Part shown: positions 1 to 15,492 of the stretch, in pieces
Layout: each line of letters begins with the position of its first letter
Numbering within the stretch: position 1 is the first letter of the stretch
Assembly: GCA_029856365.1 (NCBI GenBank)
Contig: JAHQWW010000084.1
Coordinates: 1 to 15,919 of the forward strand
From: Candidatus Hodarchaeota archaeon
Lineage (GTDB): Archaea; Asgardarchaeota; Heimdallarchaeia; Hodarchaeales; Hodarchaeaceae
Length of the DNA: 15,919 bases
Reading direction: 5' to 3'
The notes under the pieces: model-generated
The model's database searches: none
What the model was told of the DNA's origin: nothing
Seen by the model: only the letters and a program-made list of their open reading frames with translations
Translations under genes and position numbers: made by a program

Positions 1-3000
1 AGTGTTCGGGCAACAGTTGTTGTCCAAGTAAAATTCGAACTATCTACTGCATCAATAGAGTACCAATAGTCAGTAGCATCCCCTGAAAGTGTTACTGTTA
101 TGGTACTCATTGTATAAGTTGTTGCCATTAGTGAGTCAATATTCACTGTTGGTGGAGTCGTATCAAGGGTGAAGGTGACAGTTGTAAGTGCTTCGTTCCC
201 AACAGAGTCATTACCATGTGCATGTAGAATATAGGTACCATCGGAGAGTGTTCGCTCAACGAGTGCTGTCCAAGGGATATAAGAGTTATCAATCCCCAAA
301 ATATAGTACCAATAGTTATCTGCATCTCCTGTAAGCATAATAGTTATTGTACTTTTCGTGTAGGTTATTGCTATTGGTGAATCGATATTTACTGTTGGGG
401 GCGTGGTATCGATTGTGAATGTGACAATAATATGCTGTTCATTGCCAACCGTGTCATTTCCATAAGCATGTATTGTGAAAGAACCATCTATCATAGTACA
501 GTCATCATTCTCAGTCCAAGTAATGTTCGAGCTGTCAACATTTTGGATATAATACCAGTAGTGGTCTGCGTCTCCCGAAAGTGTTACAGTTATTGTACTA
601 GTCGTGTAAATAGTCGTAGTTGGTGAATCGATATTTACTATTGGAGGTGTGGTATCGATTGTGAAGGTGACTGTGACATGTTGCTCGTTTCCTACCGTAT
701 CATTCCCGTAAGCGTGTAAAGAGTACGTATTATCGCTTAAAGTTCGATCTATAGAAGTTATCCAAGTTTTATTGTTTGAATCTATTCCCTGGATGTAATA
801 CCAATAGTGTACCGCATCCCCTGAAAGGGTTACAGTTATTGTACTGGTTGGATACGTTATTGCTGCGGGTGAATCTATGTTTACTGTTGGTGGTGTTGTA
901 TCAATTGTAAATATCACTGTTACATGTTGTTCATTACCCACTGAATCATTACCATACGCATGTAGTGTGTAAGTCCCATCGGAGAGTATTCTTTCAAGGC
1001 TTGTGGTCCAGGTATTGTTTGAACTATCTATGGTTTCAATAGAATACCAATAGTCAATAGCATCGCCTGAAATTGTAACAGATATAGTTTTGGTTGGATA
1101 AGTAGTCGCTATTGGAGAATCTATATTCACTGTTGGGGGTGTGGTATCGATTGTAAAGGTGACTGTGACATTATGTTCGTTTCCTACCGAATCATTTCCG
1201 TAAGCATGCAGTGTGTAAGTGTTGTCACTTAATGTTCGGTCTACAGAAGCTGTCCAAGTAAAATTGTTTGTGTCTGCTCCCTGAATATAGTACCAATAAT
1301 TATCAGCATCACCAGAAAGTGTGACAGGTATTGTACTGGTTGGATAGGTTATCGCTACTGGGGAATCAATGTTCACCGTTGGTGGAATAGTATCGATGGT
1401 AAATATCACTAAAGTGTGGGCTACATTCCCTACAGAATCATTACCAAAAGCATGCAATGTGTAAGTCTCATCACTTAGTATTCTACCCACATTCATCGTC
1501 CATGTACTATTAGAATCATCAATTCCCTGAATGTAATACCAATAGTGTATAGCGTCTCCCGAAATTGTGATAGTTATAGTACTAGTTCCATAAGTTGTAG
1601 TGGTTGGTGAATCGATGTTCACCGTTGGTGGAGTAGTATCAATGGTAAACGTAGCTGTTACATGCTGTTCATTGCCAACCGTGTCATTTCCATAGGCATG
1701 TAAAATGAAAGATCCATCTACTAAAGTACGATCTTCATTCGCGATCCAAGTAATGTTTGAACTGTCAACACTTTGGATGTAATACCAGTAGTGGTCTGCA
1801 TCTCCCGAGAATGATACAATTATTTTACTGGTTGCATAGATTATAGCTGTTGGTGAATCAATAATGATAGTCGGGGGAGTAGTATCTATTATGAACATTA
1901 CTATTACATGTTGTTCATTTCCAACAGAATCATTTCCATATCCATGCAGTGTGTAGGTACCATCTAGTAAGGTTCGGTCAATATTCGATGTCCAAGTAGT
2001 ATTGGAACTGTCAACTCCCTGAATGTAATACCAGTAGTTAGCTGCATCACCAGATAGTATAATAGTTATTGTTGAGGTAATATAGGTTATGGCTGTTGGC
2101 GAGTCAATATTTACCATTGGAGGGGTCGTATCAATTGCGAATGTCACTAACTCATGTTGTTCATTACCAACAGAATCATTCCCATAGGCATGTAGTCTAT
2201 AGATTCCATCTGATAGTGTTCTATCCTCGTTTGTGATCCAAGATCTATTCTTGGAGTCTACTCCTTGAATGTAGTACCAGTAGTGGTCTGGGTCTCCCGA
2301 GAGTGTAACGGTGATTGTACTTGTTGCATATGTTTCAGGCATTGGTGAGTCAATAATCACTGTTGGTGGGGTGGTATCAATTATGAATGCTACTGACACA
2401 TGTTGTTCATTACCCACTGAATCATTACCGTAAGCATGCAGTGTGTGGGTTCCATCGGGGATTGTTCGGTCAAAGTTTGCTGTCCAGGTGACGTTGGAGT
2501 CATCTATCCCCTGAATATGATACCAGTAGTTGTCTGCATCACCTGAGAGTGTTACGGTTATTGTACTGGTTACATAAGTTGTCGTGATTGGTGAATCGAT
2601 ATTCACTGTTGGTGGGGTGGTATCAATGGTAAAGGTAGCTGTTACATGTTGTTTATTTCCAATTGTGTCGTTTCCGTATGCATGTAAAGTGTAAGATCCG
2701 TCTACCAATGTACGGTCATCATTTGCAGTCCATGTAATGTTTGAACTATCAACATTCTGGATATAATACCAGTAGTGATCAGCATTTCCTGAGAGTGAGA
2801 CAATTATTGTACTAGTTGGATAAGCTGTAGCTGTTGGCGAATCGATATTCACTGTTGGAGGGGTGGTATCGATCGTAAAGGTGACTGACACATGTTGTTC
2901 ATTACCCACTGAATCATTACCGTAAGCATGCAGTGCGTGGGTTCCATCGGGGAGTGTTCGGTTAATGTTTGCTGTCCAAGTGATGTTGGAGTCATCAATC

Positions 3001-3596
3001 CCTTGAATATAATACCAGTAGTGCGTTGCGTCACCTGAAAGTGTCACAGTTATTGTACTTGTCGGATAGGTTATGACTGTTGGCGATCCAACATTAACTG
3101 TCGGTGGGGTTGTATCAATTGTGAAAGTCACTGACTCATGTTGTTTATTGTCAACTGAGTCATTACCATACGCATGTAACGTATATATGCCATCTGGTAG
3201 TGTTCTATCATCATTAGTAATCCAAGTAATATTGTTACTATCAATTCCTTGAATATAATACCAATAGTTAATTGCATCACCAGAGAGAATGATTGTTATA
3301 GTATTTGTGATATAAGTCATAGCTGTTGGTGAATTGATATTTACTGTTGGAGGTGTGGTATCAATAGTAAAGCTTACAGATCTATGTGTTTCATATTCAC
3401 TAGTATCATTCCCATATGCGTGTAGTGTATATGTGCCATCTGAAAGTGTTCGGCTAACGCTTGTGGTCCATGTGATGTTAGAACTATCCACATATTCAAT
3501 ATTATACCAATAATGAGACGCATTTCCAGATAAAGTGACTGTAATAGAATTAGTTGTGTAGATTGTATCTTTGGGTGAGTCAATCTTCAATATTGG
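1..3596 (-). repeat. Intragenic tandem array of 246-bp (82-aa) Ig-like domains: 14 complete units plus a partial 15th
   Basis: The YWY-encoding motif recurs at 61, 307, 553, 799, 1045, 1291, 1537, 1783, 2029, 2275, 2521, 2767, 3013, 3259 and 3505, an exact 246-bp spacing. Consensus is PTVNIDSPxxxTYxTSTITVTLSGDAxxYWYYIQGxDSSNxTWTxxxDRTLxDGTYTLHAYGNDSVGNEQHVxVTFTIDTTP. The DG.YTL.A...D..GN and IDTTPP motifs are typical of prokaryotic Ig-like (Big) domains. Confidence 0.95.
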
Positions 3597-5981
3597 ACCT
3601 TCTAGAGGTCTTGATGTAGAAGTTAAATTGAATGTTCCAGAACCAACATTTGTAAATGATGTTTTTACCACTAAATAATAAGTTCCACTCTTTTCTGGTG
3701 TATAAATGATTTTTTCATCTGTTCCAGGTTCAAAATTGGTTGTCTTCGCAGCTATTACAGGTTCTCCAAATTGGTTTGGGTCTGGTTCATATAAAAAAAG
3801 ATCAAAATCCGCTCCATCTGGAACAGCTATTTCAAAGCTATAATTTGTCCCTATAGCCAATGCTACATTTTGTACCCAAACCTTTCGTTTTCCTAATTCC
3901 GAAGATAGTGTGCCATTTGTCAATGTTCCAACACTATAAGTATTTTCGATGGCTTCAATAGCTGCATAAATATTTAACCTTCCATAACCCTCTACAGGAT
4001 CCTTCCCCCCTCTATCATCCGAATATATTTCGTTGGCAGTCATAAGGATCAATTGTTTTATTTTAAATGGATTAGCAGCTGATCCATAACCCTCTTTCCA
4101 AAAATCATACCCACCAATTGCTTGAATTAATAAAGCTAATGATCCAGAGACAAATGGACAAGACATCGATGTTCCTTGAATATTAGTGAAATCATTAGCA
4201 ATTTTATCGCTCCACGCAAAAGTTTTCGAGTCTGCATCATTACTATCAACTTGAAGGATGCCTCCCTGAACGTTTTCACCGCCAGGAGCAGCAATGTCTG
4301 GTTTTGTTGTATTAGAAACTTCACCTGGCCCTTCCGAAGAATAGGTTGTGATCTTGTCATAATCATCTGAAGCTGCGACAGTTATTACTCCATCAACTTG
4401 TCCAGGACTAAAAATTGAATTCGATCCCTGACCATAATTACCTGCAGATAATACTACTGTTACTCCAGAATTTACAAGAGCAGCTGCAGCAGAGTCGACT
4501 GACATGACTGTTTCACGAAAACTAAATGATCCAGACGCGATAGCGATATGATATGTCTCTTTATTATTTTTAATCCAGTTAAAAGCCTCGATTACTTCAA
4601 CTGACGTGCCATCGCCAGTTTTATCAAATATTTTTACTCCTACTAATTTCACATTTGGCGCTACACCTGTAAAACGGCTATGATTATCAAGTGGATCCGG
4701 ATATGGATACTTATTCACACCTGCAATATCTAATATTCCTCCGCTCAATCCCCAACTAACACCAAGCACCACTTTCCAATATCCAAAAGCATTTTCTGAA
4801 TAAACTGCATGATTCACGGTCATATTCGAGTTGCCTGATGTATCACTTGCGATCTCAGTTCCATTTGGAGCATATAACTCGAGATATGTCCCTTTTGCAT
4901 TTCTTTCACCTTGCCAAATATAATTGATGTCTATTATACCTGTTCGATTTACCCAGATTATATAAAAGAAAGAACCTGATTTTCCAAACTCTTCATGACT
5001 GTAACTCCATGTAGATACTATTCTCCCATCGTCATAACTGTCATTGTCTTCATTTGCAGCAACTATTCCTGCTACATGAGAACCATGGCCGATATAATCA
5101 TCTGGTGTCGCAGAACCATCAGTAGTTGCGTCATACCATCCAATAATCTTTTTTGACCAATCCTGATCTTCATATCCAGGTGAGAAAGCTTGATGTGAAT
5201 CATCGATACCGGTGTCAAGAATTGCCACCGCAAAATTAGGATCACCCGTATAATTCAACTCATCCCATACATGTGTTCGTACCATTGCTAAATGAGTAGA
5301 TACATCTGAATTTCTAATAGCGGGTAAATTCTCTTCTATTAATTCAATATTTGACCCAACTTGTTTAGATAACTCTTTTACTTTTGAACTGTCGATTTCT
5401 CCACTAAAACCATACACTATATCAGTAGGATCATCCCATATATGACGAATTACCCCTCCTAATTTCTCAAATAATGTCAAATCATCTTTAAACATGATAG
5501 TTTTTGTTGTAATAATTATGGATACGATCGGATTATTTTCAGAGCTTTTTCTTATGATCTTTTCTTCTAAACTGTCAGAAATGTGATTGGCATTCTTGTC
5601 TAACTGGTTAATTTGTTTATTTCTCATTTTTTCAATGTCAATAAGATTTTTCCGTTGCTCATCTTTGAATATTGATAAACTTGGTGAAGCTGATCGAATT
5701 TCAGGATTTGCTGATGCTTCGGAAGAAAAAGTAGGAATGGACACTAAATTTTCTTTTTTAGATGTGGATAAATTCTTTTCATTTTCTAGTTGGATTATAT
5801 ATCTATGAGTTTTATCTTTTTCTTTAGAAACAGCACCATTCACAGGATTAGCATAAATAGAGATAGTAAGAAGACCTATTAATATAGTAACAGTAATTAT
5901 GGATAGTAATTGCTCTTTTATGGCATAATATGTCGCTAAATTGTGATTATAGTAACTAGAATAGATAGTTCTAGTGGACAA
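1..5981 (-). CDS. Giant secreted S8 (subtilisin-family) serine protease with propeptide, PPC-like domains and a long Ig-like tandem-repeat stalk; 3' end runs off the window
   Basis: Manual translation gives one open frame from TTG at 5981 (two in-frame TGA immediately upstream) to the left edge, ~1993 codons. It is absent from the ORF track, presumably because no stop lies in the window. It has a hydrophobic signal/anchor (LLSIITVTILIGLLTISIYA) and an I9-like propeptide (LGGVIRHIWD..VYGFSGEI..IELIEEN). Catalytic motifs: AILDTG (Asp 5214-5216), GHGSHVAG (His 5085-5087), SAGN (oxyanion Asn 4437-4439), KPDIAAPG and QGTSMSCP (Ser 4167-4169). These are followed by EGYGRLN, a PPC-like domain (ADFDLFLY...SGTYYLVV, ~3620-3900) and the repeats. 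Confidence 0.95.
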   Translation of the reverse strand, partial: MSTRTIYSSYYNHNLATYYAIKEQLLSIITVTILIGLLTISIYANPVNGAVSKEKDKTHRYIIQLENEKNLSTSKKENLVSIPTFSSEASANPEIRSASPSLSIFKDEQRKNLIDIEKMRNKQINQLDKNANHISDSLEEKIIRKSSENNPIVSIIITTKTIMFKDDLTLFEKLGGVIRHIWDDPTDIVYGFSGEIDSSKVKELSKQVGSNIELIEENLPAIRNSDVSTHLAMVRTHVWDELNYTGDPNFAVAILDTGIDDSHQAFSPGYEDQDWSKKIIGWYDATTDGSATPDDYIGHGSHVAGIVAANEDNDSYDDGRIVSTWSYSHEEFGKSGSFFYIIWVNRTGIIDINYIWQGERNAKGTYLELYAPNGTEIASDTSGNSNMTVNHAVYSENAFGYWKVVLGVSWGLSGGILDIAGVNKYPYPDPLDNHSRFTGVAPNVKLVGVKIFDKTGDGTSVEVIEAFNWIKNNKETYHIAIASGSFSFRETVMSVDSAAAALVNSGVTVVLSAGNYGQGSNSIFSPGQVDGVITVAASDDYDKITTYSSEGPGEVSNTTKPDIAAPGGENVQGGILQVDSNDADSKTFAWSDKIANDFTNIQGTSMSCPFVSGSLALLIQAIGGYDFWKEGYGSAANPFKIKQLILMTANEIYSDDRGGKDPVEGYGRLNIYAAIEAIENTYSVGTLTNGTLSSELGKRKVWVQNVALAIGTNYSFEIAVPDGADFDLFLYEPDPNQFGEPVIAAKTTNFEPGTDEKIIYTPEKSGTYYLVVKTSFTNVGSGTFNLTSTSRPLEGPILKIDSPKDTIYTTNSITVTLSGNASHYWYNIEYVDSSNITWTTSVSRTLSDGTYTLHAYGNDTSEYETHRSVSFTIDTTPPTVNINSPTAMTYITNTITIILSGDAINYWYYIQGIDSNNITWITNDDRTLPDGIYTLHAYGNDSVDNKQHESVTFTIDTTPPTVNVGSPTVITYPTSTITVTLSGDATHYWYYIQGIDDSNITWTANINRTLPDGTHALHAYGNDSVGNEQHVSVTFTIDTTPPTVNIDSPTATAYPTSTIIVSLSGNADHYWYYIQNVDSSNITWTANDDRTLVDGSYTLHAYGNDTIGNKQHVTATFTIDTTPPTVNIDSPITTTYVTSTITVTLSGDADNYWYHIQGIDDSNVTWTANFDRTIPDGTHTLHAYGNDSVGNEQHVSVAFIIDTTPPTVIIDSPMPETYATSTITVTLSGDPDHYWYYIQGVDSKNRSWITNEDRTLSDGIYRLHAYGNDSVGNEQHELVTFAIDTTPPMVNIDSPTAITYITSTITIILSGDAANYWYYIQGVDSSNTTWTSNIDRTLLDGTYTLHGYGNDSVGNEQHVIVMFIIDTTPPTIIIDSPTAIIYATSKIIVSFSGDADHYWYYIQSVDSSNITWIANEDRTLVDGSFILHAYGNDTVGNEQHVTATFTIDTTPPTVNIDSPTTTTYGTSTITITISGDAIHYWYYIQGIDDSNSTWTMNVGRILSDETYTLHAFGNDSVGNVAHTLVIFTIDTIPPTVNIDSPVAITYPTSTIPVTLSGDADNYWYYIQGADTNNFTWTASVDRTLSDNTYTLHAYGNDSVGNEHNVTVTFTIDTTPPTVNIDSPIATTYPTKTISVTISGDAIDYWYSIETIDSSNNTWTTSLERILSDGTYTLHAYGNDSVGNEQHVTVIFTIDTTPPTVNIDSPAAITYPTSTITVTLSGDAVHYWYYIQGIDSNNKTWITSIDRTLSDNTYSLHAYGNDTVGNEQHVTVTFTIDTTPPIVNIDSPTTTIYTTSTITVTLSGDADHYWYYIQNVDSSNITWTENDDCTMIDGSFTIHAYGNDTVGNEQHIIVTFTIDTTPPTVNIDSPIAITYTKSTITIMLTGDADNYWYYILGIDNSYIPWTALVERTLSDGTYILHAHGNDSVGNEALTTVTFTLDTTPPTVNIDSLMATTYTMSTITVTLSGDATDYWYSIDAVDSSNFTWTTTVART

Positions 5982-6863: not shown

Positions 6864-7190
6864 ATGCTGGTTAATGAAAAAGAAGAAAAAAAACTTTTTC
6901 AAATTTCTGATGACATATCTGGCGAACTTGAACCCTATAATAATCCTTCTCAGTTGTTGAAGGAAGATTCTGTCTATGTTCTGTTGGATAATACTCTTAA
7001 GAAAATTTTTTTATGGATTGGACAATCAGCAGAGGTTCGTTCAAGATTTATTGCAGCTAATGCAGCTCAAAAATTGCAAAGAATCAAGGGTTTAACACAT
7101 CGAGTAATCACCATTGACCAAGGTGAAGAATCATTAGAATTTATCAAAGAGATTTCTCCAATGGTTCTCCCAGAGCAATTTCGTAAATAA
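6864..7190 (+). CDS. Single-domain gelsolin-like protein (Asgard ProGel-type candidate actin regulator)
   Basis: The 108-aa product carries gelsolin-repeat hallmarks: L.EDSVYVLLD, KIFLWIG, a long helix (EVRSRFIAANAAQKL) and the closing VITIDQGEESLEF motif. Confidence 0.88.
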   Translation: MLVNEKEEKKLFQISDDISGELEPYNNPSQLLKEDSVYVLLDNTLKKIFLWIGQSAEVRSRFIAANAAQKLQRIKGLTHRVITIDQGEESLEFIKEISPMVLPEQFRK

Positions 7191-7261: not shown

Positions 7262-7942
7262 TCATATCAATGCATCAAAAAAAGTTATCGGACGTCCAGT
7301 TGGACTTCTTTTTTCTGAATATTGAACTGCAAACCCCTTTGTAATTAATCGTTGTAAACTATCATAAATTGTGCTACGTGGGACATTGGTTAATTGAACT
7401 AGTTCAGGCCGAGAAAGGGGGCCATATGCTTTCAAAACTTCGAATAGAATAAGATCCAAGTCATGAGTTAATGGTAGTCTCTCTTGAGTCTTCATTGAGT
7501 CTTTTTTGTTCGCTGTTGAATGTATTAATAGAATTTTAAGAAGTAGAGAATCATACTTAATCTCTAAAGATGCAAGTTTCTCCAGAGATTCTTTTTGAAT
7601 CATTGTAATGATTTTTGAAATAGGTGTTGTTTCTGGTAGTCCGAGAAGTTCACGTAGAGCTGTGATTTCATTATAAAGTTGATTCAGTTGGGTGAAATCT
7701 AGGGAGGAGATGTTTAATGATTTCCGAATCTCCTCTAGTTTTTGATAGAAGTGATAATGCTGTTTAATTGGGTATAATGATGGGAGTTCTAATTCATTTT
7801 GCATTTTTTTAAGGAGGAACCACGTTTTTTTTACTTCTTTTTTAGAAGCATTACTTTTTAGGCTTAATAGTCTTTGCAGCTCTTTTAGATTCTTGTTTTT
7901 TAGGGATTCCGTCTTTGAAGAAAAACTGCTATTATAAGTCAA
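7262..7942 (-). CDS. TrmB-like winged-HTH transcriptional regulator with C-terminal HTH and N-terminal helical repeats
   Basis: The C-terminal LFEVLKAYGPLSRPELVQLTNVPRSTIYDSLQRLITKGFA...GRP matches the TrmB DNA-binding pattern (VPRSxIYDxLxxL.xKG). No TrmB sugar-binding domain is present. TTG start. Confidence 0.85.
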   Translation of the reverse strand: MTYNSSFSSKTESLKNKNLKELQRLLSLKSNASKKEVKKTWFLLKKMQNELELPSLYPIKQHYHFYQKLEEIRKSLNISSLDFTQLNQLYNEITALRELLGLPETTPISKIITMIQKESLEKLASLEIKYDSLLLKILLIHSTANKKDSMKTQERLPLTHDLDLILFEVLKAYGPLSRPELVQLTNVPRSTIYDSLQRLITKGFAVQYSEKRSPTGRPITFFDALI

Positions 7943-8279: not shown

Positions 8280-9365
8280 TTATTCTTCATCTTCTGGTTG
8301 ATATTCAAAAATAAGTGGTGGCTTTTTTGCCTCGATCCCTTCTTTTAACAATAACTGTTCGTTATGCACTGAATCTTTATCTCCTAATTTAGTTCCTTCA
8401 TGAAAACACCAAAGAGCATAACTTTTGTATTCAAGAAGATCATCTTCCAGTACTGCTTCTTTAATATGTTTTTTATAATATATATTTCCAAGATTAAACC
8501 AAGCTTTGATATATTTTGGATTCGCTTCGAGTGATTTTTGAGTATAATCGATTGCTTTATTCAAATCGCCAATTTTATAATAAACACTGCCTAATTCTGA
8601 CCACGCTGATTCCTTATCAGGAGCTAACTCCAACCCCTTAGTATATGACTTGACTGCGTTAATTAAATCATCTTCTAATCCCTGGTTATAGTATAGATTG
8701 CCAAGAGCAAACCATAATTCAGAATGTTCTGATAAGGTGTTTAATGCTCTTTCATAAGTTAAAATTCCGTTCCTAATTTCCCCTAAGTCGCGATAAACAA
8801 TTCCTAGATTTATCCATGCCTTTAAATGTAATGGATCAGTTTCTAAAGCCTTTTCGTAACATATAATGGCTTCTTTGAACATACCTCCATTATAATATAG
8901 GATACCAAGGTTATAATGTGCAGAGGTATACTTTGGATCAAGTTTGAGGGTTTTTTGATAAGCCCCTATTGCTTTTTTTACGTCTGTATTTTCATAAAAC
9001 CTAGCCAAATTGTACCAATTTGGTGCATAATCAGGTTTCAGTTCAATTGCTCTAAAAAAAGCATCTTTAGCTTTATTTAATTGTCCCAATTCTAAAAATA
9101 CATTTCCTAGATTTAACCAGATTGATGCAGCTTGTGGATTTTTCTCTAACACATTTTTATAGTATTTTAAGGCTTCTTCCCATTCTTTTTGGGCATAATA
9201 ACAATTACCCAACCCAAATTGTGCATCAATGTAGTTTGGGTCGATCGTTAAAGCATAAATAAAGTTCTCTATAGCGGTATTAATGTCTCCTTTCCGATAA
9301 TTGGTGGTTCCTAGATCAGTCCACTCTTTCTCGGTTGTAGGTCTACTTGATGATTCATTATTCAT
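8280..9365 (-). CDS. Tetratricopeptide-repeat protein (~9 TPRs)
   Basis: 34-aa repeats with W..LG..Y...G....A...Y..AL...P consensus span almost the whole length, ending in a short acidic tail. No catalytic domain is visible. Confidence 0.93.
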   Translation of the reverse strand: MNNESSSRPTTEKEWTDLGTTNYRKGDINTAIENFIYALTIDPNYIDAQFGLGNCYYAQKEWEEALKYYKNVLEKNPQAASIWLNLGNVFLELGQLNKAKDAFFRAIELKPDYAPNWYNLARFYENTDVKKAIGAYQKTLKLDPKYTSAHYNLGILYYNGGMFKEAIICYEKALETDPLHLKAWINLGIVYRDLGEIRNGILTYERALNTLSEHSELWFALGNLYYNQGLEDDLINAVKSYTKGLELAPDKESAWSELGSVYYKIGDLNKAIDYTQKSLEANPKYIKAWFNLGNIYYKKHIKEAVLEDDLLEYKSYALWCFHEGTKLGDKDSVHNEQLLLKEGIEAKKPPLIFEYQPEDEE

Positions 9366-9848: not shown

Positions 9849-12512
9849 TTGAAAAGACCGAAATTTTCTTCAACTGGTGAATTAATGCGAGCCCGTATCC
9901 AACTTCGGAATCGAAGTTATATTTGGGAAGCAATTAAACAACATCCCCGTACCGTCGCTCTAATTGTTACATCGATGATTACACTTCCTCTTTTTGCATT
10001 CACATCTTTACCTCCAGTTGAAGTTACTGAAGAAATTCTCCAAAATACGGTGGAAGAAATTCAAATTCCAGTTGAAGTCCCTGTTAATGTTTCAGTTGAG
10101 ATTCCTATAGAAATTAATCAAACTATTGAAGAGGAGGTTAATAAAACAATTGAAGTGGAGGTAAATATTACAAAAGAAGTGGTGGTTAATACCACAATTG
10201 GAGTCAATATTACAGAAGGAGGTAGTATTTTTCTCGAATCACAGCCGTTACCGCCACTTATCAACATGGATATCGTTTTTTGTATCGATACTTCAGGTAG
10301 TATGGATGCAAATCGGATGCCACTAGCAAAAGCCGCTATTCGTAACACCTTGAATTTGATAAATCAATCGTACTGGGCGAATTTATCAAATGATCAAGTG
10401 TCTTTAGTATCATTTGATTTTGTTAGTGATGGAGATTGGACGACCGATGCGACACTTCATACTCCGTTAGATTATGTGAGTAACCAGACACATCTGTCGT
10501 ATCTTTTGAGTGAGGTGGAGACTTTAAGTGGTAGTGGGGGAACCAACGCATGGGCTGGGTTGAACGTCTCATTGGATGCTTTATTCAATACACAACGTAA
10601 TTCATCAGTTTTAAAAACCATTCTCTTTCTTACGGATGGGAAACATAATTCAGGCCCTTGGGGCACGGAGGTCGATGCGGGAAACTATACTGGCTTCATG
10701 CAACTGCCTTCAAATCGAGCACCCGCTTCAGCCAGTCCGATTGTAGTAGCAAGGAACAATAGTGTCAAGATTTACTCAATTGGTTTGTTTGAAGGAGCCA
10801 CATATGATTTTGATGAGTTATTTTTAAGAAATATCTCGTTGGATGAAAATTATGGAACCGCTGGCGACTTTTTTGTAGGGAATGATACGTTATCCTTATC
10901 TGAGGGCTTTTTAATGGCCCGTGATCATGCATCTGGCTGGGTGACTGTGAATAGCTCGGAAGTGGTCCTCCAAGACACTGGTGCACTCCAAATGTTTACC
11001 TTTAATGTTACAAAAGATATTAGAAGGCTTAAATGGGATTTAAATTGGAATAATCCTTCTGTTGACTTTAATTTGACAATTATTGACCCCAATGGGACTT
11101 TTATCGATATTTCTACCAATATCACTAAAAATATTATTCCCATTACACTCCAAAAACCGAAATCTATCATCTTCGATTTCCCAATGCTTGGATTTTGGCG
11201 GTTTAACATATCCTGGCAAAATATCACAAGCCCAGGAGACCTCATTAAGGGGAGACTCTCCTCTTACAATCCCCCAATCTTCATTGAATCTATTACGCAA
11301 TTTAATTCAACAACTTTCAATACTACTCTAGAATCCTTTCCTCTAAGCCCAAAATTATTGACGCAGGATACTACACAACCATTTCTGGATATTATTTCAT
11401 ATAGACTAAGTGATTCGGATGATGGTGTCTTTAGTAATCAATCAGTGTATTTTTTGGTGAATGTAACCAATAAAAATCCTTGGTTTACCTATAATAATAT
11501 TACTCCTTATGTACTTGCTAATTTCACTGCTTTCAATGTTAGTTATACATGGGATCCTTCAGTTGTTAACATCTTAATAACGAACGAATCAATCTCATTT
11601 CTCTTCAATCTCACCTTCCTTGAACCTACCCTTCTTCAGGGTGATATCTTTTTTAAAGTAAACTGTTCTGAGGGATATTATGATGCTATAGCCCAATCAG
11701 TTACTCTAGATTATCGGATTACAACACAAAATATTACTGTGGAAAGCCATCTTGAAAATCAAACTATAACTGTTTTTGAAAATCGTACTGTTTTAGTTAC
11801 AGAAAATCGAACTATTATTACAATCGTAAACTCTACTAGCTATGAGCTTAGAACCCAAATTACTCTTGTTCCTAGTACAACTAATGTTTTGAAATATACT
11901 TATGACCGCCAAATGTTTGATACTCTTAAATGGATAGGATTTTTCGCAACACTAGCTCTGTTAATGTCGTTTTTAGCGGTCTATATCATGTCTCAAGCAC
12001 ATCATCTGAAAGATATTGCTTATAAATTCAGAGGGCGTTTTTTCCAAGATCAATCTGCCTTGGAATTGGCCTTACGACAGGAAGGGATTACAATTGCTCC
12101 CGCAGACCTTAGTTCAGTAATGATGGAAGCGGATGATTTAGATCAGCTTGGAGAGAGTATCTTTAATTTAACAGGAAAGCATCTATCTCCAGAAGAGTTG
12201 ATTAGAATAGCATCTGGAACCAATATGGATAGGATTGCCGAAAGGATAAGTTATGTTACTGGTATGTCTAGGGATGAGATTATCTCTCATCTGAGAGATG
12301 CTCCAAGCATTGAAGTACTAATACAACGATTAGATTTAGATAGCGAACGATTTCTAGATATTATCGCTCGTGATGAGGATGTATTAAACTTTCAAAAAAG
12401 AATTTCTAACTTAATGACCCCAACAGCACGTGTAATATCCAGAATCCGAATCTATGACGATTTAAATGTTGACCACTTCAGATCTCGCTTAAGAGAAAAA
12501 TTCCATTCATAA
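9849..12512 (+). CDS. Two-TM membrane glycoprotein with extracellular von Willebrand factor A (MIDAS) domain, beta-sandwich domains and a helical cytoplasmic tail
   Basis: TM1 is VALIVTSMITLPLFAFTSL. The VWA domain has DIVFCIDTSGS (DxSxS at 10287-10301), GGTN and ILFLTDG. It is followed by a PPC-like domain (LNWNNPSVDFNLTIIDPNG...GFWRFNI), a further Ig-like region, TM2 (WIGFFATLALLMSFLAVYIM, ~11931-11990) and many N-x-S/T sequons. The start may instead be ATG 9885, which is preceded by GGTGA. Confidence 0.9.
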   Translation: MKRPKFSSTGELMRARIQLRNRSYIWEAIKQHPRTVALIVTSMITLPLFAFTSLPPVEVTEEILQNTVEEIQIPVEVPVNVSVEIPIEINQTIEEEVNKTIEVEVNITKEVVVNTTIGVNITEGGSIFLESQPLPPLINMDIVFCIDTSGSMDANRMPLAKAAIRNTLNLINQSYWANLSNDQVSLVSFDFVSDGDWTTDATLHTPLDYVSNQTHLSYLLSEVETLSGSGGTNAWAGLNVSLDALFNTQRNSSVLKTILFLTDGKHNSGPWGTEVDAGNYTGFMQLPSNRAPASASPIVVARNNSVKIYSIGLFEGATYDFDELFLRNISLDENYGTAGDFFVGNDTLSLSEGFLMARDHASGWVTVNSSEVVLQDTGALQMFTFNVTKDIRRLKWDLNWNNPSVDFNLTIIDPNGTFIDISTNITKNIIPITLQKPKSIIFDFPMLGFWRFNISWQNITSPGDLIKGRLSSYNPPIFIESITQFNSTTFNTTLESFPLSPKLLTQDTTQPFLDIISYRLSDSDDGVFSNQSVYFLVNVTNKNPWFTYNNITPYVLANFTAFNVSYTWDPSVVNILITNESISFLFNLTFLEPTLLQGDIFFKVNCSEGYYDAIAQSVTLDYRITTQNITVESHLENQTITVFENRTVLVTENRTIITIVNSTSYELRTQITLVPSTTNVLKYTYDRQMFDTLKWIGFFATLALLMSFLAVYIMSQAHHLKDIAYKFRGRFFQDQSALELALRQEGITIAPADLSSVMMEADDLDQLGESIFNLTGKHLSPEELIRIASGTNMDRIAERISYVTGMSRDEIISHLRDAPSIEVLIQRLDLDSERFLDIIARDEDVLNFQKRISNLMTPTARVISRIRIYDDLNVDHFRSRLREKFHS

Positions 12513-12532: not shown

Positions 12533-13459
12533 TTAAAAGCTATAGATCCGGTCTTTTAGGTGTTGATATTGATTATCGGTGACCTCTCGGATAATTGACT
12601 CTGTAAAATCACGGATCATTCCTTCAGCTGTAGATTGGAAATCTTTTGCACACTTCATTTTCCCAAAAAGAGAATCAATTGTTGGAATTTGGTATTGGCT
12701 GGTTATTGTTATAAATTGTAGATCTTCTCTAATTTTTCCATATGTTTTTATTGAGAAATCATTAGCGATTCTTTCAAGCCATTTATTCGAGAGGACTTTC
12801 TCAGAGACTTGGTTGAATATCACTCCATTAAGAGACAATTTAGGATTAGCAATCGAATTATAATCTGATAGGAACACTAAAAGACTCTCTACCTCCTTTG
12901 ATAATTCCTCATATTTTTCCTTGCTGCAATCTACTACTCCAACAATAATGTTTGAATTAAGTAAAGCAGGGATGATTGAATTATTTTTTTCTCTAACTTC
13001 AATTACTGGTAAATCATAAAAGATATAACGAGTACCTGCTTTTTCTAATAGCAAAGAAATATCCCATAATATCTTTGTTAGATCAAGAGTTTCTGTTTTT
13101 GTTAAAAAACTGGTCATACCACGAGGAAAGAGAGGAATCATAAAAAATAGAGGTTCATTAGTATCTTTATGAACAAATTTAGAGGGAAAACTGCATTTTG
13201 ACCAATCTGGTTCTGTTGAGGATCTCATCTCTTCTATTAATGAGGTTAATTCCCCCATTCTCATTAGAATCTTGTCGGAAGCGAAAAATAACAAAGTTGA
13301 ATACATGTTTGAAAAATCAAATATACAAGCAATTGGGAAGTCAAACTGCTTTTCTTGATCTTCTTTTATCCTATTCTTAACAATTTCATAACCAATTGAA
13401 GCCATTACAGGAGTTTGACTAGCAGTAGTCCCAGTTGAAATAAATGACACCCTGAACAT
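12533..13459 (-). CDS. MinD/ParA-family (SIMIBI) fold protein with degenerate Walker A; probable pseudo-ATPase
   Basis: Motif order follows MinD/ParA: RVSFIS-TGTTASQT-helix (P-loop position), ACIFDFS (cf. VLLIDAD), RYIFYDLP (cf. YDYILIDTP), ALLNSNIIVGVVD, LNGVIFNQV (cf. GVVLNRV) and YGKIRED (cf. LG.IP.D). Confidence 0.72.
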   Translation of the reverse strand: MFRVSFISTGTTASQTPVMASIGYEIVKNRIKEDQEKQFDFPIACIFDFSNMYSTLLFFASDKILMRMGELTSLIEEMRSSTEPDWSKCSFPSKFVHKDTNEPLFFMIPLFPRGMTSFLTKTETLDLTKILWDISLLLEKAGTRYIFYDLPVIEVREKNNSIIPALLNSNIIVGVVDCSKEKYEELSKEVESLLVFLSDYNSIANPKLSLNGVIFNQVSEKVLSNKWLERIANDFSIKTYGKIREDLQFITITSQYQIPTIDSLFGKMKCAKDFQSTAEGMIRDFTESIIREVTDNQYQHLKDRIYSF

Positions 13460-13833: not shown

Positions 13834-15492
13834 TCATTCAATTATTCTCTCGGTTTTCTCCCCAATTTTATAGATTTGACTATTTTTCTTCTTTTTCTGT
13901 AAATCTGTAAGGATATTTTCCACATGGTTTTGATGAGGCCAGTTAGGAGGTGCAGCAAGTAAGGCAAAACGAAAAGCTTGTTCTGCCTCATTTAGACGCC
14001 ATAGTTTGCATAAAACAGCACCTAAGTTGGCATAAGCAAGGTGATTATTTGGATTATGTTTTAGAACCTCATTAAATACTTCCTCTGCTTCTCTCAATCG
14101 ATTCTCCTCGGCCAACAGTTCTCCCAAACGGAGTTGAATATTCATCTGAGTGGGGTTATGCTTTAATGCTGTTTGATAGGCTTCTTCTGCCTTCTTAAGA
14201 CGATGTTGCCTATGTAGAAGAACTCCCAGATTATGCCAAGCTTTTTCATTTGTTGAATCATATTTCAGCGCATTTCGATAAGCCCCTTCTGCTTCAAATA
14301 TACGCCCTTGGTTTTCTAATAAATAACCTAGATTATACCATGCATCGGTATGGTTATGTTTTAATTGGATTGCAGTGTGATAAGATTGCTCTGCTTCCGT
14401 CAAATGTCCTTTTTCAGTAAGAAGATTCCCTAAGTTATACCATGTACTAGCTTGACTAGTCTCATATTTCAGAGAAATGCGATAAGCATTTTCTGCCTGT
14501 TTTAAGTACCCGCGTCTATGTAACAAACTTCCCATATTATTCCAAGCGTTTGAATGATAATGATCATACTCTAATGCTTTTTGATAGGCTTCCTCTGCTT
14601 CGACTAAACGGTTTTGATTTTCATATGATATTCCAAGGTTCCACCAAGCATCTGCATTAGCGGATTCATTGTTTAGGGCAGCTTGACATGCCTTTTCTGC
14701 TTCAATAGATTGTTTTTGATCATTTAATACTCTACTCAGATTTACCCATGTATTAGTTTGAGAGGGGTCATATTTTAGGGATGTTTGATAAGCCTTTTTT
14801 GCTTCTCCGAGCTGTTCCTGTTCCCTAAGTATATCTCCTAGTTTTGACCATATTTCAGCATTCTTTGGTTCGAGTTTGACTGCTATCTGATAAGCTTCTC
14901 TTAGATGGCCTTGATTCAATAAGACATTCTTCAAATTAGTCAAAGAATTTGTATGCTTTGGTTCATATTTTAATACCAATCGATAGGCTTTTACTGCTTC
15001 AGAAAATTGCTTCTTTTTTTCAAGTAAAACTCCTAAATTGTACCAGCTTTTTATATTGGTTGGTTTAGATTCTAGGGCTATTCGAAATGCTTCCTCTGCT
15101 TCTGTTAGACGATTCTGTTCAGTTAATAACACCCCTAGATTTGTCAGGACTGAGGCGTGTGTACGATCATGCAATAAAGCCGACCAAAATTCCTTTTCTG
15201 CTTCAGTAAAACGATTCTGTTTGTACAACAATTTTCCGAGATTATTCCGAACATCAACGTTACCAGGTTCATATCTAAGGGCTTTTCGGAAGGACCTCTC
15301 AGCTTCTATGAGTTTTTTTTGCTTATATAAACAAATTCCGAGATAAGACCATGCTTTAGTAAAAGCAGAATTGTGTTTCAGAGCTGTTCGATAAGCCTTC
15401 TCTGCCTCAGTCAAACGACCCTGTTTAAAATGAAATGTACCTCTTTTAAACCACTTATCCGCATCAAAAGGATCATCTTGAAGTAATTTCAT
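13834..15492 (-). CDS. Tetratricopeptide-repeat protein (15 TPRs plus capping helix)
   Basis: There are fifteen consecutive repeats with consensus AWxNLGxLLxxQxRLxEAExAYxxALxxxP. The sixth unit is 3 aa short. No other domain. Confidence 0.95.
   Translation of the reverse strand: MKLLQDDPFDADKWFKRGTFHFKQGRLTEAEKAYRTALKHNSAFTKAWSYLGICLYKQKKLIEAERSFRKALRYEPGNVDVRNNLGKLLYKQNRFTEAEKEFWSALLHDRTHASVLTNLGVLLTEQNRLTEAEEAFRIALESKPTNIKSWYNLGVLLEKKKQFSEAVKAYRLVLKYEPKHTNSLTNLKNVLLNQGHLREAYQIAVKLEPKNAEIWSKLGDILREQEQLGEAKKAYQTSLKYDPSQTNTWVNLSRVLNDQKQSIEAEKACQAALNNESANADAWWNLGISYENQNRLVEAEEAYQKALEYDHYHSNAWNNMGSLLHRRGYLKQAENAYRISLKYETSQASTWYNLGNLLTEKGHLTEAEQSYHTAIQLKHNHTDAWYNLGYLLENQGRIFEAEGAYRNALKYDSTNEKAWHNLGVLLHRQHRLKKAEEAYQTALKHNPTQMNIQLRLGELLAEENRLREAEEVFNEVLKHNPNNHLAYANLGAVLCKLWRLNEAEQAFRFALLAAPPNWPHQNHVENILTDLQKKKKNSQIYKIGEKTERIIE

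Follow-up and report, generated by a model that had tools for sequence, protein, structure and literature searches.

How does a surface protein of an archaeon hold its head away from the membrane, and what might that head be held out for? The question is raised by an open reading frame (ORF) on contig JAHQWW010000084.1 (GCA_029856365.1) of Candidatus Hodarchaeota archaeon, from which we analysed a stretch of 15,919 nt, here called the window. The ORF lies at 9849-12512 on the plus strand and encodes 887 aa, a translation that matches the one quoted in a previous interpretation of the DNA letters alone (the sequence-only reading), in which a VWA head was proposed to stand on a two-stranded, glycosylated β-ribbon between two transmembrane (TM) helices. 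Our analysis makes it probable that the gene encodes a lineage-specific, single-copy surface receptor or adhesin, found in one group of Hodarchaeales, with its head on a stalk of paired N- and C-terminal β-strands. The argument turns on the two stalk segments, whose lengths rise and fall together across the family, with indels at matching heights in the related pairs compared.

The VWA gene probably starts at ATG 9885 (M13), giving 875 aa, because M13 (MRARIQL) is the first residue of the homologues and also of an identical database sequence of 875 aa. Residue numbers throughout count from TTG 9849, not from ATG 9885. The parts of the gene, all on the plus strand, are as follows.

9885..12512, plus strand: whole VWA gene, 875 aa from the ATG; the ORF is open from TTG 9849 (887 aa).
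9885..9953, plus strand: cytoplasmic N-tail, aa 13-35, basic (+6/-1), with a conserved YxWEAIKQHxRT.
9954..10016, plus strand: TM1, aa 36-56, ending in a near-invariant TxPLFxFTSLPP; conservation 0.76.
10017..10205, plus strand: N-stalk (outgoing strand), aa 57-119, 63 aa, amphipathic; five N-x-S/T sequons, four of them with period 8.
10206..10868, plus strand: VWA domain with a complete metal-ion-dependent adhesion site (MIDAS); Pfam PF00092, E 5e-13; invariant columns; Foldseek and VIA matches.
10869..11306, plus strand: first β-sandwich, aa 341-486; strands in the AlphaFold2 (AF2) model at a predicted local distance difference test score (pLDDT) of 80-90; PPC-like motif LKWDLNW..DFNLTIIDPNG.
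11307..11435, plus strand: variable disordered insert, aa 487-529; pLDDT about 26; missing from many homologues.
11436..11717, plus strand: second β-sandwich, aa 530-623, ending in a near-invariant EGYYDA..LDYR.
11718..11906, plus strand: C-stalk (returning strand), aa 624-686, 63 aa; five sequons, four with period 8; T/V/I-rich and non-amphipathic.
11907..11996, plus strand: TM2 helix, aa 687-716, with a hydrophobic core at 694-716 and invariant K694, W695, G697 and Y712.
11997..12509, plus strand: cytoplasmic helical domain, aa 717-887, about ten short helices; one sequon.

Across 36 full-length homologues, the N-stalk, measured between the invariant LPP and NITEG, is 27-71 aa long; the C-stalk, measured between LDYR and KWxG, is 33-78 aa long. 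The two lengths are correlated with r = 0.993 and a slope of 1.02. The C-stalk exceeds the N-stalk by 7 residues in 24 proteins and by 6 in another 11; in the remaining one it is shorter by 1. Phylogenetic independent contrasts, computed on a maximum-likelihood tree from which the stalk columns had been excluded, gave r = 0.988 and a slope of 1.03 (35 contrasts), and the length changes are spread across many branches of that tree. The expectation that the two segments co-vary in homologues was therefore borne out, 1:1 over 27-71 aa, and independent variation was not seen. The rule also holds for stalks that have neither octads nor sequons (27/33 and 31/37) and for steps of four residues. Most changes are steps of 4 or 8: among 15 distinct length states, 12 have an N length equal to 3 mod 4, and 14 an odd one. 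This period of 4 is unexplained by a two-stranded ladder alone, which predicts a period of 2; it could reflect a supertwist of the ribbon, oligomer symmetry or the mutational unit.

A metagenome member fetched after this analysis (L021) has stalks of 83/90 residues, whereas its nearest relatives (66-67% identity) have 51/58 and 42/48. Judged by its sequence, L021 is an out-of-sample confirmation of the length rule and has undergone a separate expansion by 32 residues on each side. The L021 protein (SDBT01001384.1, gene 1501-4167) carries the longest stalk seen, built of near-perfect repeats: its N side has seven IEVEVN[KR]T octads and its C side three super-repeats of 16 residues, a pattern that suggests a recent matched expansion. 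The same matching is visible within the strands when related proteins are aligned in pairs and residues are counted from the head, which places the indels at the following heights.

P0008 versus P0010: N 1-17, C 4-22.
P0015 versus P0022: N 2-15, C 7-21.
P0004 versus P0001: N 25-34, C 33-40.
P0001 versus P0015: N 37-48, C 40-53.

The N and C indels thus lie at matching heights below the head, as an antiparallel ladder losing rungs predicts and as is hard to reconcile with two segments that each fold back on themselves.

Structure prediction gave a similar picture of the stalk. In the full-length AF2 model of the window protein (P0001; 34-sequence alignment, mean pLDDT 69), strands run over 59-83 and 90-114 on the N side and over 631-655 and 660-684 on the C side, and their limits mirror one another (59 + 684 = 83 + 660 = 743; 90 + 655 = 114 + 631 = 745). 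The model of P0037, a short-stalk homologue (27/33), has one unbroken 19-residue strand per side, at 43-61 and 577-595, again with mirrored limits (43 + 595 = 61 + 577 = 638), and every other strand in that model is at most 11 residues long. Because DSSP calls only laddered strands and the others are too short, the two stalk strands of P0037, as modelled, could pair only with each other. In both models the offset on the membrane side is 7-9 residues, absorbed by an N-terminal extension of the TM2 helix, and it equals the C-N rule. The antiparallel pairing put forward in the sequence-only reading is what these long strands with mirrored limits on both sides imply; at a stalk pLDDT of 41-60, the direct contact between them is a matter of deduction.

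In the N segment (nt 10017-10214, aa 57-122), the Asn residues of sequons stand at 80, 90, 98, 106, 114 and 120, the last of which sits at the head border, beyond the 63-aa N-stalk; the C segment (aa 624-686, nt 11718-11906) has them at 628, 637, 645, 653 and 661. The core period is exactly 8 on both sides (90/98/106/114 and 637/645/653/661), so the sequon positions reported earlier are correct. Shuffled sequences would be expected to hold 0.9 sequons in the N segment and 1.7 in the C segment, against the six and five found. Across the 4.2-Mb genome (3610 ORFs of at least 120 aa), runs of three sequons at a spacing of 8 occur in both stalks of the VWA ORF and once in one unrelated ORF only. 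At the DNA level, the N-stalk octads are 24-nt tandem repeats (10114-10204). Both stalks are about 50% V/I/T. Across the family the N-stalk is strictly amphipathic, with 67% V/I-type residues at one parity and, at the other, 15% hydrophobic, 34% acidic, 14% Asn, 18% Ser/Thr and 10% Pro; Pro is confined to this polar parity (10% versus 0% on the hydrophobic one), as would suit a strand that has one edge free. No amphipathic pattern is present in the C-stalk. The near-equal lengths noticed before turn out to be a match of 63 aa on each side, with the N strand ending at aa 119 and the C strand set at 63 aa because AF2 starts the TM2 helix at aa 687. By contrast, the supposed charge complementarity between a Glu-rich outgoing and an Arg-bearing returning segment found no support: the net charges are -12 (N) and -1 (C), and a register scan gave no signal.

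Both ends of the stalk appear to be anchored in the membrane. Kyte-Doolittle hydropathy has two TM peaks, at aa 36-56 (TM1) and 694-716 (TM2), the sites where two helices had been expected. Between them (aa 55-695) lie 37 sequons, against 11.1 expected from shuffles, whereas the 171-aa C-terminal tail has one. The charge is +6/-1 before TM1 and 0/-6 over the 24 residues that follow. No part of the protein is better conserved than TM1 (mean majority fraction 0.76, versus 0.61-0.69 elsewhere), which has invariant T45, P47 and P55 and is preceded by a conserved tail of 23 aa. Because of this sequon sidedness, charge asymmetry and TM1 conservation, the protein fits a hairpin topology with both termini inside and TM1 as a retained, uncleaved anchor. 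Two claims of the sequence-only reading, that both termini are cytoplasmic and that TM1 is one of two membrane anchors, are supported by the same observations.

The stalk would carry a head made up of a VWA domain and two β-sandwiches. Pfam finds a single domain in the protein, VWA (PF00092), at aa 141-334 with 50 bits against a gathering cut-off of 23.8. The MIDAS residues D147-x-S149-x-S151, T232 and D263 are invariant in 34 homologues, so that the DxSxS..T..D motif recognized earlier stands in all five positions. Structural searches with Foldseek and VIA match the VWA domain to SpaC, PitA, Mfa5, RrgA, ANTXR2/CMG2/TEM8, integrin beta-I and BatB, with Z up to about 21, and AF2 models the head of full-length P0001 confidently (pLDDT 80-90). 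Binding of a ligand at the metal site is the most likely role of the head. For the first β-sandwich there is a weak lead to the PPC domain, found in a distant relative (P0052). The insert at aa 487-529, between the two β-sandwiches, is variable and sequon-bearing and could be a variable loop or a linker.

On the other side of the membrane, the tail (aa 717-887, 171 aa) is modelled by AF2 as about ten short helices with a pLDDT of 70-83. It has no match in Pfam (E up to 10), in PDB by sequence or profile, or among ESM Atlas features; VWA matches took up the whole-model Foldseek and VIA lists, and the tail contains no NPx[YF] motif. Next to it lies a second gene.

12533..13459, minus strand: convergent partner gene, 308 aa, with a ParA/MinD fold in which the Walker A lysines are replaced (STGTTASQT).

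In each of the ten fetched loci reaching past the VWA 3′ end, the partner ORF and the VWA gene meet tail-to-tail, whereas other neighbours vary between loci. By coordinates it is adjacent in 11 of the 11 genomes that hold both genes; in the twelfth VWA genome the gene is at a contig end, and the contig does not extend to the partner position. In a closed relative genome that lacks the VWA gene, the partner survives only as a truncated copy. Pfam, NCBIfam, PDB sequence and PDB profile searches of the partner returned no match, and its fold was revealed only by an Atlas lead and by profile-profile comparison with the ParA/MinD proteins of its own genome (hhalign against the own-genome ParA/MinD/CbiA proteins: probability 96.7%, E 4e-10, 239 columns). 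In that alignment the Walker A motif KGGxGKT faces STGTTASQT, with both lysines gone, a change conserved in ten orthologues; a Walker B-like Asp is retained. The partner is likely to be a non-catalytic ParA/MinD derivative, or pseudo-ATPase, and the two genes look like one functional module. In another Asgard family, a stalk-less VWA protein of the P0052 kind with a homologous tail (L012, G397:C134, 1-882, plus strand) also has a partner homologue, convergent at 986-1951 (minus strand), with HGGAGEGQTT at its N-terminus. Because this stalk-less protein is convergent with a partner homologue as well, the two-gene module is, on present sequences, older than the long stalk.

The family itself is narrowly distributed. 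The VWA protein is single-copy in its genome, in which no paralogue of any part of it was found. Of the 399 Asgard genomes covered, 12 encode the protein. All 12 belong to one genus-level group of 22 genomes, the genome of the window included. Among 1.8 billion representative proteins, 12 clusters reached E <1e-30, and a metagenome scan yielded three further loci only. Short matches that might have been fused, split or stand-alone forms (P0047-P0051) were rejected as gene fragments or chimeric calls. The alignment with P0052, a distant Asgard relative, spans aa 131-624 (28% identity, E 2e-42) and ends at the stalk borders; in P0052 the TM helices are joined to the head by Pro-rich, non-repetitive linkers of about 25-30 aa. 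Because homology to P0052 stops at the stalk borders and its linkers are short and non-repetitive, the alignment points to the two-TM VWA receptor as the older form and to the long matched strands as a later elaboration in the family of the window.

From these observations we propose the following path for the chain. It would enter the membrane at TM1 with its N-terminus inside, leave as a β-strand of ~63 residues, build the head, come back as a second strand of ~63 residues, re-enter at TM2 and end in the helical cytoplasmic domain of ~170 aa. The outgoing and returning strands would pair antiparallel, in register and residue by residue, into a rigid ribbon whose length determines how far the head stands from the membrane. 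With 0.33 nm allowed for each residue, a fully extended ribbon would measure about 20 nm in this protein and, over the whole family, about 9-27 nm. Evolution would add or remove equal numbers of residues at equal height in both strands, a change that would often be one of 8-residue units bringing one N-glycosylation sequon each. The stalk sequons may be glycosylated; the portions of the supplementary files of a glycoproteomic study of cultured Hodarchaeales that were available to us make no mention of a VWA protein (bioRxiv 10.1101/2025.02.26.640444). The ribbon may be a free, monomeric two-stranded rod of ~20 nm or one part of an oligomer. Self-association of ribbons is suggested by the exposed V/I face and the Pro-tolerant free edge of the outgoing strand, and would probably serve to bury that face. 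For the tail, the likeliest role is docking of the ParA/MinD-like pseudo-ATPase encoded by the adjacent gene, which could serve clustering, positioning or signalling.

Several points weigh against this proposal. The length rule is broken by one protein, P0014 (856 aa, N 51/C 50), whose C-stalk is one octad (8 residues) short. A score for cross-strand hydrophobic and charge matching, admittedly crude, had no peak over shifts of -9 to +9 and behaved the same as a same-direction control. In both AF2 models the stalk pLDDT is only 41-60, and the N:C pairing was deduced from the lengths and positions of the strands, not read from coordinates or from the predicted aligned error. An isolated two-stranded ribbon of 63 residues with an exposed V/I face is physically unusual, and we found no solved precedent. 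Expression, glycosylation, and the binding of ligand and partner are predictions from sequence only. As for P0014, an intermediate that has yet to be compensated, a bulge and an assembly error could each account for its mismatch.

What the structure would be for is a further question. The VWA protein may act as an adhesion receptor or mechano-receptor, as was suggested from the letters. One cultured Hodarchaeales strain has a lattice of surface-layer type, described below, and a stalk tuned to the height of that lattice is a reasonable reading. A more ambitious version, to which we give only a small chance, casts the two proteins as a transmembrane module for adhesion and signalling, analogous to integrins, in archaea closely related to eukaryotes. 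The stalk would be a ruler-like, force-bearing element of adjustable length, the MIDAS head would reach beyond the surface layer (S-layer) or glycocalyx to grip syntrophic cells or surfaces, and ligand or tension would be relayed through the paired TM helices to the tail, recruiting a pseudo-ATPase that clusters or positions receptors.

The main functional rival keeps the same structure and makes it a pillar or anchor that sets the distance from the membrane to the S-layer or glycocalyx, the head gripping the lattice from below. We think this role improbable, if the best of the alternatives. The stalk lengths of 9-27 nm fall within the range of archaeal membrane-to-S-layer spacings, and stalk length is rigidly controlled. 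Cultured Hodarchaeales bear protrusions with surface filaments, and one strain has a regular S-layer-like lattice with S-layer proteins whose N-glycosylation was predicted and then confirmed by glycoproteomics (bioRxiv 10.1101/2025.02.26.640444). Against a pillar, the gene is present in only 12 of the 22 genomes of its own genus-level group, is found nowhere else in the phylum and has been lost from a closed genome, and because it is so patchily distributed an essential role in the envelope is argued against; S-layer proteins, by contrast, are reported to be conserved across many lineages (bioRxiv 10.1101/2025.02.26.640444). The folded cytoplasmic domain and the dedicated partner also suggest more than passive anchoring.

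Among structural rivals the main one is a compact stalk, in which the octads are short strands linked by N-x-T turns and lying across the axis, so that each segment is a β-meander or β-solenoid. The two folded segments would pack side by side or face to face and would still need equal heights, but the stalk would be only about 2-4 nm tall. In favour of such a fold, V/I recur at alternate positions of the period of 8 and the x of N-x-T surpasses the remaining odd positions in polarity; a V/I core would account for the hydrophobic face, and stalk lengths mostly change by multiples of 4 or 8. We nevertheless disfavour it and rate it as unlikely. The 1:1 rule is kept in stalks that lack octads and sequons (27/33, 31/37) and at 4-residue steps, which means matching at the level of residues rather than of units. 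The segments contain no Gly/Asp turn formers and have Pro midway in the would-be short strands, and the AF2 strands are continuous over 19-25 residues, with no break every 8.

If TM1 were instead a cleaved signal peptide, the mature protein would be of type I and its N strand would have a free end. A basic N-terminal stretch followed by a hydrophobic one is indeed the general layout of a signal peptide; TM1 is, however, the most conserved region of all (0.76, with T45, P47 and P55 invariant) and has the conserved 23-aa tail upstream, so that we consider cleavage very unlikely. We find it harder still to believe that each segment folds back as a hairpin of its own, leaving the head near the membrane with the two hairpins alongside it, perhaps as a four-stranded sheet. 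The P0001 model, with each segment split into two 25-residue strands, is also compatible with such hairpins, but P0037 has a single unbroken strand in each segment, and the sequences at the putative turns (EIPIEI, IITI) do not resemble turns. Moreover, the 14-17 residues that sister pairs have lost come, in both segments, from the head-proximal arm alone, a loss that would wreck a hairpin of this kind but merely take rungs out of an N:C ladder. The idea of two independent, extended, glycan-stiffened spacers of mucin-like character that never touch draws on the high sequon density and the low AF2 confidence, and is equally far-fetched, because flexible linkers need no one-residue match across a three-fold length range, a content of about 50% V/I/T in strict alternation is unlike S/T/P-rich mucin-like linkers, and AF2 assigns laddered strands.

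A paired-strand stalk between two anchors is thus the reading we retain, and its consequences can be stated. The rule C = N + 6/7 is a quantitative prediction for each new homologue and has passed one out-of-sample check (L021). If true, a 9-27 nm rod made of two strands and lengthened in 4- or 8-residue steps, often with a glycan site, would be a new and very economical spacer that could serve protein design, and a head borne on an N:C antiparallel β-ladder whose length is tuned through matched octad indels would be a principle of construction with no solved precedent. The locus is also a testable candidate for the attachment of Asgard archaea to obligate syntrophic partners or surfaces, combining a single-copy receptor-like protein, an integrin-style head, a folded cytoplasmic domain and a dedicated partner.

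The rest of the window is in keeping with its source: GC content is low (about 30-40%), and the closest homologues of the window genes are all in Hodarchaeales or Heimdall-type Asgard metagenome-assembled genomes. At 3-5981 (minus strand) a subtilase (Peptidase_S8) of >1990 aa, followed by at least 13 Big_13 Ig-like repeats, runs past the window edge; it is another long-stalked surface protein near the VWA gene. A stand-alone single-domain gelsolin of 108 aa (6864-7190, plus strand; PF00626, E 6e-7), an Asgard eukaryotic-signature protein, is not conserved as a neighbour of the VWA gene. The VWA locus is flanked by a TrmB-type helix-turn-helix protein and two TPR-repeat proteins (7262-7942, 8280-9365 and 13834-15492, all on the minus strand), and the TPR gene upstream of the VWA gene is retained only in the closest relatives (L002 and L003).

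How, then, does the protein compare with known systems? Integrin I/beta-I receptors, Dictyostelium SibA (PMC9197732) and ANTXR1/2 (TEM8, CMG2) likewise have an extracellular MIDAS VWA head, one or more β-sandwiches, a membrane anchor and a cytoplasmic coupling domain, and the VWA domain matches integrin/ANTXR-type receptors with Foldseek E of 1e-5 to 1e-6 and VIA Z of 18-20 to CMG2, TEM8 and ANTXR2. These receptors are, however, single-pass type I proteins with stalks of folded domains, whereas the Hodarchaeales protein has two TM helices and a stalk of flanking strands, and there is no detectable sequence homology to them outside the VWA domain. Pfam matches no integrin, PSI, EGF or Anth domain in it. 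Membership of the integrin beta/SibA class is contradicted by the two TM helices and by the lack of any integrin-family Pfam match and of NPx[YF]; as for ANTXR1/2, only the VWA domain matches, and the tail has neither a Pfam nor a PDB counterpart. By analogy, integrin, SibA and ANTXR-type receptors may be its closest functional analogues.

The stalk-less Asgard TM-VWA-sandwich-TM proteins (P0052 and L012) have an entire head homologous to that of the Hodarchaeales protein. L012 has a similar C-terminal TM, cytoplasmic domain and convergent ParA/MinD-like partner, and the N-terminal TM is seen in P0052, but long, amphipathic, sequon-bearing and length-matched strands occur only in the family of the window. 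Bacteroides and Leptospira BatA/BatB combine a MIDAS VWA domain with TM helices (PMC3557215), and the BatB VWA domain is among the top structural matches (3ibs, Z 20.8). Unlike the Hodarchaeales protein, they have no β-ribbon stalk and no comparable cytoplasmic domain; conversely, the VWA protein has no BatA_N or TPR domain and the window has no MoxR gene and no operon of the bat/MoxR kind, its TPR genes being separate from the VWA gene, on the opposite strand and not conserved as neighbours. The pilus-tip VWA adhesins SpaC, PitA and RrgA and the type V tip Mfa5, the best full-model Foldseek matches, also combine a VWA head with β-sandwiches; they are displayed at the end of covalently polymerised pili, not by a hairpin stalk anchored in the membrane, and sequence identity is only 10-20%. 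A fibrillar adhesin is likewise a poor description, as the stalk consists of 63-aa strand-like tracts with an 8-aa period and not of domain repeats. Membership of the integrin, ANTXR, Bat and fibrillar-adhesin classes thus fails beyond the VWA domain, in agreement with the sequence-only reading, in which the architecture was not recognized among described families, and our literature search found nothing that pairs Hodarchaeales with VWA and nothing on a two-stranded β-ribbon adhesin stalk. The partner, for its part, shares fold-level homology and a Walker B-like Asp with ParA/MinD (SIMIBI) ATPases but differs in both Walker A lysines, and its relative in G397 reads HGGAGEGQTT where the partner in the window has STGTTASQT.

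For the stalk itself, the nearest parallels lie among proteins that carry a module at the tip of two antiparallel segments: the cytoplasmic coiled-coil hairpins of methyl-accepting chemotaxis proteins (MCPs), the arms of SMC/Rad50 and the stalk of streptococcal antigen I/II. Such arms change by matched units, heptads in MCPs, and matched-arm evolution is textbook knowledge for coiled-coil hairpins. MCP and SMC/Rad50 arms are α-helical, and the antigen I/II stalk is an α-helix wound with a polyproline helix. All are thus α or α/polyproline II, whereas the arms of the Hodarchaeales protein would be β-strands with a unit of 4 or 8, extracellular, sequon-rich and membrane-anchored at both ends. 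We know of no described case of matched-arm evolution for β-strands. A VWA membrane receptor or adhesin is a known kind of protein; the principle of its stalk appears to be new.

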